The notes beneath the pieces are model-generated. The model saw only the letters and a program-made list of their open reading frames with translations, made no database searches and had not been told where the DNA came from. From assembly GCA_964479125.1 (NCBI GenBank), contig CAYZJK010000002.1, positions 1 through 56,415 of the forward strand: DNA of 56,415 nt, written 5' to 3'. Each line of letters begins with the position of its first letter. Within the stretch, counting starts at the first letter, position 1. Of this stretch, positions 10,833 to 11,078 are shown one piece after another. The stretch comes from an uncultured Candidatus Saccharibacteria bacterium (GTDB taxonomy: Bacteria; Patescibacteriota; Saccharimonadia; Saccharimonadales; Saccharimonadaceae). The position numbers were made by a program, and so were the translations under genes.

Positions 10833-10880
10833 CGCTATATATAGAGTATAATTAAACATAAGCAACACTAAATACTGCAA
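10833..10880 (+). promoter_or_regulatory. Promoter with NrdR-box-like sites upstream of the CxxC micro-ORF
   Basis: CGCTATATATAGAG (10833-10846, near-palindrome), TATAAT at 10847-10852, and ACACTAAATACTGCAA (10865-10880). The last shares the 10-mer CACTAAATAC with nrdA-upstream sites at 6699-6708 and 6843-6852. Confidence 0.4.
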
Positions 10881-10901
10881 TTGATGAATAGGGGGAAATT
10901 C

Positions 10902-11078
10902 ATGAACGCATCAGAAATCATTACCGAAGACATGACACTTGAGGAGAAGCTAAGCGCTATCGACCAAGCCATGAAAAATGCCCAGGCACAGGCTGAAGCT
11001 CAGGCAAAAGAGAAGGGTGAGAAGGTTTTCGCACCAATCGATCCAGCTGAACTTACAATGTGTGACGGCTGCCAATAA
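10902..11078 (+). CDS. 58-aa helical protein ending in a C-terminal CxxC (…PIDPAELTMCDGCQ)
   Basis: ATG 10902 is preceded by GGGGGA (10891-10896), so the TTG at 10881 in the ORF track is unlikely. The only two Cys are at -5 and -2 from the C-terminus. A strong terminator follows. Confidence 0.6.
   Translation: MNASEIITEDMTLEEKLSAIDQAMKNAQAQAEAQAKEKGEKVFAPIDPAELTMCDGCQ

Follow-up and report, generated by a model that had tools for sequence, protein, structure and literature searches.

The window analysed here is a 56,415-nt stretch of contig CAYZJK010000002.1 from an uncultured Candidatus Saccharibacteria bacterium, whose assembly (GCA_964479125.1) amounts to 853 kb and is 93% complete. It harbors a class I ribonucleotide reductase (RNR) locus, in which a gene for a 58-aa micro-protein lies 1.5 kb downstream of the large-subunit gene nrdA, beyond the small-subunit gene nrdB and a flavoprotein gene. 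An earlier note, made from the letters of the window, had described NrdA as lacking the C-terminal redox Cys pair and the small gene as encoding one long helix plus a tail that ends in CDGCQ, and had hypothesized that the tail function of the RNR was split off into this co-regulated micro-protein. The genes and protein segments of the locus are the following.

6961-9366, + strand: nrdA, class I RNR large subunit, 801 aa, with C230, C444, and C459 present and no C-terminal Cys pair
9238-9363, + strand: Cys-free C-terminal stub of NrdA after the YYLH motif, 42 aa, ending in the clade-conserved RGFGFAK; a conjectural docking site
9388-10389, + strand: nrdB, class Ic-like small subunit, in which Phe takes the place of the radical Tyr and the first metal ligand is Glu
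10411-10818, + strand: gene for a PNPOx-like split-barrel flavoprotein, between nrdB and the micro-gene, an order shared with one relative (G002) and not with most
10891-10896, + strand: GGGGGA ribosome-binding site, conserved in relatives and located 5-6 nt before the ATG
10902-11078, + strand: micro-protein gene, 58 aa, proposed detached RNR redox tail (type 1)
10932-11015, + strand: N-terminal amphipathic helix module of the micro-protein, residues 11-38, MTLEEKLsAId.Am..AQ, conserved; proposed non-covalent anchor
11034-11075, + strand: C-terminal redox module of the micro-protein (residues 45-58), PIDPAELTMCDGCQ, which can be aligned with the tails of fused NrdAs
11100-11133, + strand: intrinsic-terminator-like GC-rich hairpin ACCCCCGC/GCGGGGGT, 3' of the micro-gene and followed by a convergent gene

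NrdA consists of an ATP-cone, an all-alpha domain, and a barrel domain, and its nearest solved relative by sequence is PDB entry 5IM3, which we take to be the Pseudomonas aeruginosa enzyme. The catalytic Cys residues lie in the motifs SNCF (C230), NLCTE (C444), and AVCNL (C459), and all three are invariant in 27 homologues. C459 (nt 8335-8337) is the last Cys of the chain, leaving 342 Cys-free residues that end in ...RGFGFAKKR, which confirms the earlier description of a large subunit without a redox tail. The same was found in each of the 120 closest NrdA homologues (79-100% identity over the last 282 residues of the query): none has a Cys after the YYLH motif, and all end in a RGFGFAK-type motif. 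This homologue search with the NrdA region yielded close Saccharibacteria only (at least 79% identity), and the tailed relatives considered below came from genome searches. G794, F795, G796, F797, and A798 are invariant in 27 sequences. The GFGFA motif (RGFGFAK, residues 795-801, 9343-9363) is found clade-wide, is missing from the tail-less NrdAs of sister lineages, and is found together with the helix that is conserved in the type-1 peptide.

The micro-protein ends in TMCDGCQ, and C54 and C57 are its only two Cys residues. It is built from two conserved modules, the helix MTLEEKLsAId.Am..AQ and the terminal motif aP.DP.....C..C[QE]-COOH, joined by a variable linker. In a 39-sequence alignment the MTLEEKL block, D47, P48, C54, and C57 are invariant, so that both Cys residues, on whose conservation the earlier note had staked its hypothesis, are retained. 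The AlphaFold2 model, computed with 39 homologues, agrees with the description of a helix plus a tail: residues 13-38 form a single helix at a predicted local distance difference test score (pLDDT) of ~78, and residues 39-58 show regular structure limited to a four-residue turn at a pLDDT of ~55, a low confidence that fits disorder without proving it. Homologues form 107 clusters at 90% identity, nearly all of them 54-59 aa long. A profile search of 1.84 billion representatives returned 139 clusters at 50% identity, of which 132 are full-length, non-spurious matches, all stand-alone and at most 108 aa in length; three longer proteins match the helix region only and have no C-terminal CxxC, and none of the 139 clusters is a fusion to NrdA. 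The terminal Cys pair is present in all full-length homologues listed except P0253 (...SYEGCQ) and P0340 (CGDAC spacing), and those homologues in which the end motif is missing are apparently gene calls affected by truncation or a frameshift. Pfam searches with the micro-protein gave just sub-threshold coiled-coil noise, with no match to PF00085, PF00462, or an RNR domain, and its profile found no relative among solved structures at E < 0.01.

That the small open reading frame is a real and conserved gene is supported by its Shine-Dalgarno sequence, promoter, and terminator; a strong Shine-Dalgarno sequence and an ATG are present in every copy examined. In addition, a 232-nt contig from a gut metatranscriptome covers positions 10854-11085 with 0 mismatches. 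The RNA evidence consists of contigs assembled from a single metatranscriptome run, in which the share of words was small, and transcript ends and levels are not deducible from them; the contig is a weak hint of a short monocistronic RNA, with which it is compatible. One relative carries, ~1.3 kb downstream of its intact micro-gene, a degenerate second copy with two internal stops (G023:C1:102550-102690), which is likely a decayed duplicate.

The genes around the micro-gene in the window are nrdA, nrdB, the PNPOx-like gene, and zwf, and in relatives they are nrdA or nrdB. NrdB bears a class Ic signature, with Phe four residues past the EEANH histidine and the Glu of PNELL as first ligand, and its nearest solved relative is PDB entry 1SYY (E 5.6e-71), presumably the class Ic R2 of Chlamydia trachomatis. 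A class Ic-like RNR accompanies every detached type-1 tail observed here. Most relatives have the order nrdA-micro-gene-nrdB followed by a CYTH-like gene, instead of the order with the PNPOx-like gene, and in one relative (L003 in G010) an extra open frame of ~90 aa occupies the spacer between the micro-gene and nrdB.

Co-occurrence with tail-less NrdA and the tails of sister lineages

We assessed the distribution of the micro-gene in 401 Saccharimonadia genomes, defining the NrdA clade of the window by at least 68% identity over the last 201 residues. This clade is represented in 93 of the 401 genomes, and the micro-gene was found in all 93, including one copy (G322) that escaped the profile and was spotted by eye. 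In 92 of the 93 it follows nrdA on the same strand at a distance of at most 2.6 kb, and in the remaining genome the locus is split across contig ends. About 39 genomes have the order nrdA-micro-gene-nrdB, with the micro-gene beginning 18-260 nt past the NrdA match on the same strand, and the remainder have it after nrdB, as in the window. No micro-gene was found in the sampled Saccharimonadia genomes without this NrdA clade or in ~375 other Patescibacteria. The co-occurrence that the earlier note had asked to see was thus complete, and the outcome it had feared, homologues found mainly beside a Cys-tailed NrdA or away from the RNR genes, was the opposite of what we observed: the micro-gene occurs only in genomes with a tail-less class I NrdA, and it is linked to nrdA. 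The NrdA of the cultivated oral Nanosynbacter relatives belongs to the same clade.

In sister clades, whose NrdAs are 35-42% identical to that of the window, the large subunits of families f45, f46, and f48 and of G179 (family f56) carry a tail of their own that ends in ...C.[LI].DP.CEACQ-COOH. A search of the 401 genomes with the DNA pattern DP-x-C-x-x-C-[QE]-stop matched 22 of them, compared to 1 for the reversed control pattern. Twenty of these matches fall in f45, f46, f48, and f56, and lie just downstream of an NrdA match wherever one is listed; of the other two, that in G097 is a free peptide and that in G066 (f49) looks unrelated. We aligned the ends of 10 stand-alone proteins with six tail-type (DP-x-C) ends, namely five fused NrdA tails and the free peptide of G097, and found D, P, C, C, and Q to be invariant with a single 4-residue indel. 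As these D-P...C-x-x-C-Q-COOH ends are alignable, the window's protein ends in the motif that ends the normal NrdA of its relatives. In five fused-tail genomes the tail profile built from this alignment matched at the NrdA end alone, with no free peptide.

Tail-less NrdAs also occur among the sister lineages, and those of G097, G119, G043, G063, G181, and G067 are accompanied by unlinked stand-alone tail peptides. G097 encodes a 41-aa free peptide with the end IKLCRIDDPNCESCQ, ~700 kb from nrdA, and G067 one of ~31 aa with the end IKLCRIDNPNCESCAG. The peptides of G119, G043, G063, and G181, termed type 2, are 35-59 aa long and end in DWDKPM.CPIDP..L.EC..CQ; type-2 and type-3 peptide genes lie tens to hundreds of kb from nrdA. 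The sister RNR that goes with stand-alone tail peptides has an NrdB with Asp as first ligand (ADSIAANN). In family f41 a stand-alone tail frame of 32-95 aa was found in 27 of 32 genomes and a fused tail in none. In a tree of the last 262 NrdA residues, the split lineage G097 is sister to the fused G179 (support 95/91), the split G067 comes next, and all are nested among fused lineages, which indicates that the fused or split state changed more than once. As a separate observation, the type-2 tails (L122, L123, L131, L132) share an acidic-aromatic D[SI]DWDKP segment before the first Cys that recalls the acidic-aromatic ends of RNR small subunits.

NrdR-box-like sites and phage copies

Two regulatory regions of the window bear on the co-regulation of the micro-gene with nrdA.

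6699-6860, + strand: nrdA promoter/operator region with NrdR-box-like sites, containing CACTAAATAC at 6699 and 6843 and CTATATATCTAGTG (6810-6823), which fills the -35/-10 spacer
10825-10880, + strand: micro-gene promoter/operator, with -35 TAGACA (10825-10830) and -10 TATAAT (10847-10852)

The spacer between the -35 and -10 elements of the micro-gene is filled by a first NrdR-box-like site, ACGCTATATATAGAGT (10832-10847), which matches the consensus at 14/16 positions and contains the palindrome CGCTATATATAGAG (10833-10846). A second site, ACACTAAATACTGCAA (10865-10880), matches at 11/16 positions and lies 33 nt past the first, so that the pair brackets the -10 element. The promoter thereby repeats the layout of the nrdA promoter, with an AT-rich palindrome in the spacer and a ACACTAAATAC-containing second site just downstream. 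The 10-mer CACTAAATAC occurs exactly three times in the window (6699, 6843, and 10866) against 0.19 expected, and three or more occurrences were seen in 0 of 100 shuffles. The promoter motifs of the earlier note were thus located, together with the three copies of the 10-mer that it had counted. In the whole 853-kb genome, the published NrdR-box consensus is matched at 14/16 or better by five sites, and by none in a shuffle; the site at 10832-10847 is one of the five. Among the other four (C43:225, C7:2608, C30:3323, and C3:33269), one is followed by an NrdD-like class III RNR gene and another by an operon that includes the thymidine kinase gene (tdk). The remaining two lie near a yidC/jag-like region and near a ClpB-like gene.

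For the micro-gene we found what is expected within an NrdR regulon, namely a tandem of 16-bp boxes over the promoter, spaced by about three helical turns, and an NrdR in the genome; the second box is weak, and the NrdR homologue is encoded on contig C22. Co-regulation with nrdA, as put forward in the earlier note, is therefore supported by the copied promoter/operator layout and by the rank of the first box among the five best matches of the genome. Upstream of the unlinked type-2 genes of G119, G063, and G043 we found pairs of good NrdR-box-like palindromes 31-32 nt apart, and upstream of that of G181 one 14/16 site, which suggests that the RNR regulon still includes even the unlinked copies.

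The micro-protein is also encoded on 34 phage-like contigs of IMG/VR. Neither NrdA nor NrdB was found within 4 kb of the micro-gene on any of the 34, and no RNR barrel was found in three complete phage genomes with terminal repeats, which implies an ability of the peptide to act on an enzyme whose gene lies elsewhere. Directly downstream of the micro-gene, 11 of the 34 contigs carry a glutaredoxin-fold gene, and the products of seven of these are 55% identical to the CAFC redoxin of the host. Of the clues available, this pairing best indicates what the reductant of the peptide is. The phage contigs examined encode terminase, RusA, endolysin, and RNA-repair genes. On two of them (L145:1848-3542 and L140:5214-6980), genes beside the peptide gene are interrupted by Hint/intein-like modules, as in an RNA ligase that contains a Hint domain, and a PNKP-type kinase-phosphatase adjoins the peptide gene; the PNKP-type and RNA ligase genes suggest a tRNA-repair cassette.

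The micro-protein as a proposed detached redox tail

We consider it highly probable that the 58-aa protein is the C-terminal redox-shuttle tail of a class I RNR in the form of a separate polypeptide. This reading follows from the reality of the gene and its conservation, the tail-less NrdA, the identity of its end motif with that of fused tails, the co-occurrence with one NrdA clade, the complementary distribution of fused and free tails, the similarity of the operators, and the pairing with glutaredoxin-fold genes in phages. The hypothesis of the earlier note, that the tail function was split off into a co-regulated micro-protein, thus gains support from strong comparative evidence, namely linkage, motif homology, and complementary distribution. 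If so, an enzyme essential for the supply of DNA precursors probably depends here on an unannotated micro-protein.

A search of the host genome for the remainder of the relay, likewise suggested in the earlier note, identified five small redoxins of the glutaredoxin fold, of which one is NrdH-like (CVAC...SGFR, contig C1) and one carries CAFC (contig C10), and two thioredoxin-reductase-like genes. No PF00085 thioredoxin was found in this 93%-complete genome. From these components and the comparisons above we infer how the thiol-disulfide chemistry would proceed, which reductant would serve it, and how the peptide would dock. C230 and C459 of NrdA would form a disulfide at each turnover, with C444 as the thiyl-radical site, in an enzyme that has lost its own Cys-pair tail. 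The C54-x-x-C57 dithiol of the micro-protein would enter the active site and reduce this disulfide. The oxidized micro-protein would then be re-reduced by a glutaredoxin-fold redoxin, for which the CAFC protein (C10) and the NrdH-like CVAC protein (C1) are candidates, and the redoxin in turn by a thioredoxin-reductase-like flavoenzyme using NADPH. The N-terminal helix would probably anchor the peptide non-covalently to the enzyme, replacing the covalent linker; that it docks on the RGFGFAK end of NrdA is a guess. Transcription of the micro-gene would start at a separate copy of the nrdA promoter/operator and hence be subject to co-repression by NrdR. A complex prediction for NrdA with the micro-protein, based on alignments of both, gave a median score of 0.31 against a mark of 0.32, without controls, and was used as evidence neither way.

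Several points weigh against the detached-tail reading. The thiol-disulfide exchange and the NrdA binding ascribed to the micro-protein are proposals drawn from sequence comparisons. The motif shared with the fused tails is short, ~14 residues with five of them invariant, and its alignment needs a 4-residue indel, so that convergence is formally possible. A fused ancestor of the full type-1 protein, with helix and tail on NrdA, was not found in the 1.84 billion representatives, and the simple shuttle model leaves the conserved N-terminal helix unexplained. The eight genomes of family f51 have a tail-less NrdA, and no tail peptide was found in them by pattern, by profile, or by inspection of the nrdAB locus; in the example of G074 (L139) the NrdA is of the sister type, 904 aa long, with the end ...DFAAAPTAS, and the other seven are alike. 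Hence either the tail is not strictly required or another solution exists. On the regulatory side, a plain scan of the window with the NrdR consensus showed no overall enrichment (5 matches against 9.7 expected), and the second box of the micro-gene is weak (11/16); the NrdR argument rests on site position, genome-wide ranking, and relatives, and not on enrichment in the window.

Other functions can be envisioned for a small protein with a terminal CxxC. It could be a general dithiol carrier that substitutes for thioredoxin with several disulfide-forming enzymes and is not dedicated to RNR, as might be suggested by the missing PF00085 thioredoxin, by the peptides of phages that have no RNR, and by type-2 and type-3 genes unlinked to the nrd genes. 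Such a carrier would not be expected to co-occur in 93 of 93 genomes with, and be linked to, one NrdA clade and to be absent from Saccharimonadia without a class I RNR; moreover, its motif equals an NrdA tail, and even its unlinked copies stand behind NrdR-box-like sites, paired in three of four genomes. We regard this explanation as improbable, although the least so of the four considered here. Alternatively, the protein might handle metal. As with the accessory proteins YfaE and NrdI, it would assist in loading or maintaining the Mn/Fe cofactor of the class Ic-like NrdB, with Zn, Fe, or Mn bound jointly by two copies of its CxxC end. Such a role would suit a gene in an nrd operon with an NrdB of class Ic signature and would suit the adjoining flavoprotein gene, and a terminal CxxC often serves as a metal ligand pair. 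However, each chain contributes just two Cys residues, the motif naturally ends NrdA and not NrdB in sister lineages, free tail peptides are also found with the sister RNR, in which the first ligand of NrdB is Asp, and the phage copies are paired with glutaredoxin-fold genes rather than with NrdB or metal proteins. This makes a metal-handling accessory very unlikely.

The separate NrdR-type promoter and the helix without an assigned role would also be in keeping with a regulator, that is, a mimic of the tail that occupies the active site or the tail-binding surface of NrdA and inhibits the RNR or senses its redox state, following a logic like that of Sml1. We give this even less credence, since NrdA has no tail of its own with which a mimic could compete, both Cys residues of the micro-protein are invariant, and the peptide tracks the loss of the fused tail in several lineages, as expected for a replacement and not for an added inhibitor. 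Finally, the tail might not be separate at all, being joined to NrdA by stop-codon read-through or frameshifting, for which the 18-260 nt that separate it from the NrdA match on the same strand in ~39 relatives would leave room, or the split might be an artefact of assembly or annotation. This can be practically dismissed: in the window the micro-gene lies 1.5 kb away, behind nrdB and another gene and with its own promoter, every copy examined has a strong Shine-Dalgarno sequence and an ATG, the type-2 and type-3 genes are separated from nrdA by tens to hundreds of kb, no nrdA accompanies the phage copies, and the split is present in 93 independent assemblies.

Three further candidates were considered and rejected. 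A split-off tail of NrdB was ruled out by the NrdB itself, which retains the conserved Tyr (SYEV) and a short end resembling that of 1SYY. A precursor of a ribosomally synthesized and post-translationally modified peptide was rejected for lack of adjacent modifying enzymes (radical SAM, cyclase, or protease/transporter), the neighbours being nrdA, nrdB, the PNPOx-like gene, and zwf. A redoxin of the thioredoxin fold (Trx, Grx, or NrdH) does not fit a protein that matches neither PF00085 nor PF00462 and is modeled as helix plus coil, with its CxxC at the extreme C-terminus and not at the start of helix 1.

Returning to the detached tail, a wider scenario can be drawn, which we put forward tentatively and rate at somewhat below even. 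Covalent tethering of the tail would be dispensable and would have been lost several times in Saccharimonadia, with the tail persisting as diffusible dithiol peptides of 31-71 residues; the helix of the type-1 peptide would re-tether it via RGFGFAK; and phages would use the peptide, in many cases together with the glutaredoxin-fold protein that reduces it, as a minimal auxiliary module that speeds the host RNR while they encode no RNR themselves.

Significance and comparison with known systems

For the class I RNR, a textbook enzyme, the C-terminal Cys pair is regarded as integral to the large subunit. If the proposed function is correct, a natural free-tail system would demonstrate that the RNR shuttle works intermolecularly, and the re-reduction half-cycle would become open to study, since titration, labelling, or mutation of the tail would leave NrdA itself unchanged. 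Such a system would likewise add an essential and routinely unannotated gene to the minimal gene sets of the candidate phyla radiation, including those of oral Nanosynbacter relatives that are in cultivation. The phage copies point to a new and very small kind of auxiliary metabolic gene that would target the dNTP supply of the host, and the repeated transitions between fused and split states make the Saccharimonadia a natural experiment in gene fission. Our literature search found no description of a detached class I RNR tail or of one in Saccharibacteria. New here are the fused-tail sister enzymes as an anchor of homology, the further types of stand-alone peptide, the fused/split sister pair of f56, the f51 exception, and the genome-wide ranking of the operator site.

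The tails of class I RNRs reduce the active-site Cys residues and are re-reduced by thioredoxin or glutaredoxin (PMC11903788, PMC4078304). With these fused tails the micro-protein shares a CxxC one residue from the free C-terminus, a preceding D-P, an end that can be aligned residue by residue, and an associated NrdA that forms an active-site disulfide; its tail segment may be flexible as well. In contrast to them, it is a free 58-aa chain with its own promoter and not part of the NrdA polypeptide, it has 5 residues between DP and the first Cys compared to 1 in the fused tails, and it has a conserved N-terminal helix that fused tails do not have.

The closest published analogue of a detached tail is the split class II RNR of Pseudomonas aeruginosa, in which the separate NrdJb mediates thiol-disulfide exchange for NrdJa and is required in vivo (PMC4520616). 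As would be the case for the micro-protein, NrdJb is a separate polypeptide for thiol-disulfide exchange that serves a catalytic subunit with a complete active site. However, NrdJb belongs to a class II (B12-dependent) enzyme and represents the C-terminal part of a gene that was split and whose pieces are still adjacent, whereas the micro-protein goes with a class I (Ic-like) enzyme, has a helix-plus-tail build without a Pfam match, and is encoded behind nrdB, elsewhere in the genome, or on phages. Homology to the RNR catalytic chain beyond the Cys motif, as in NrdJb, was not found for the micro-protein, which has no RNR Pfam domain. A different rearrangement of the relay is known from Facklamia ignava, in which a Grx domain is fused to NrdB (PMC6187632). 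Like the micro-protein, NrdH and the glutaredoxin-like redoxins are small CxxC proteins that are genetically coupled to RNR and feed electrons into it, but they have a thioredoxin fold with the CxxC at the N-terminus of a helix and reduce the NrdA tail, whereas the micro-protein, without this fold, resembles the tail itself and would act one relay step further down.

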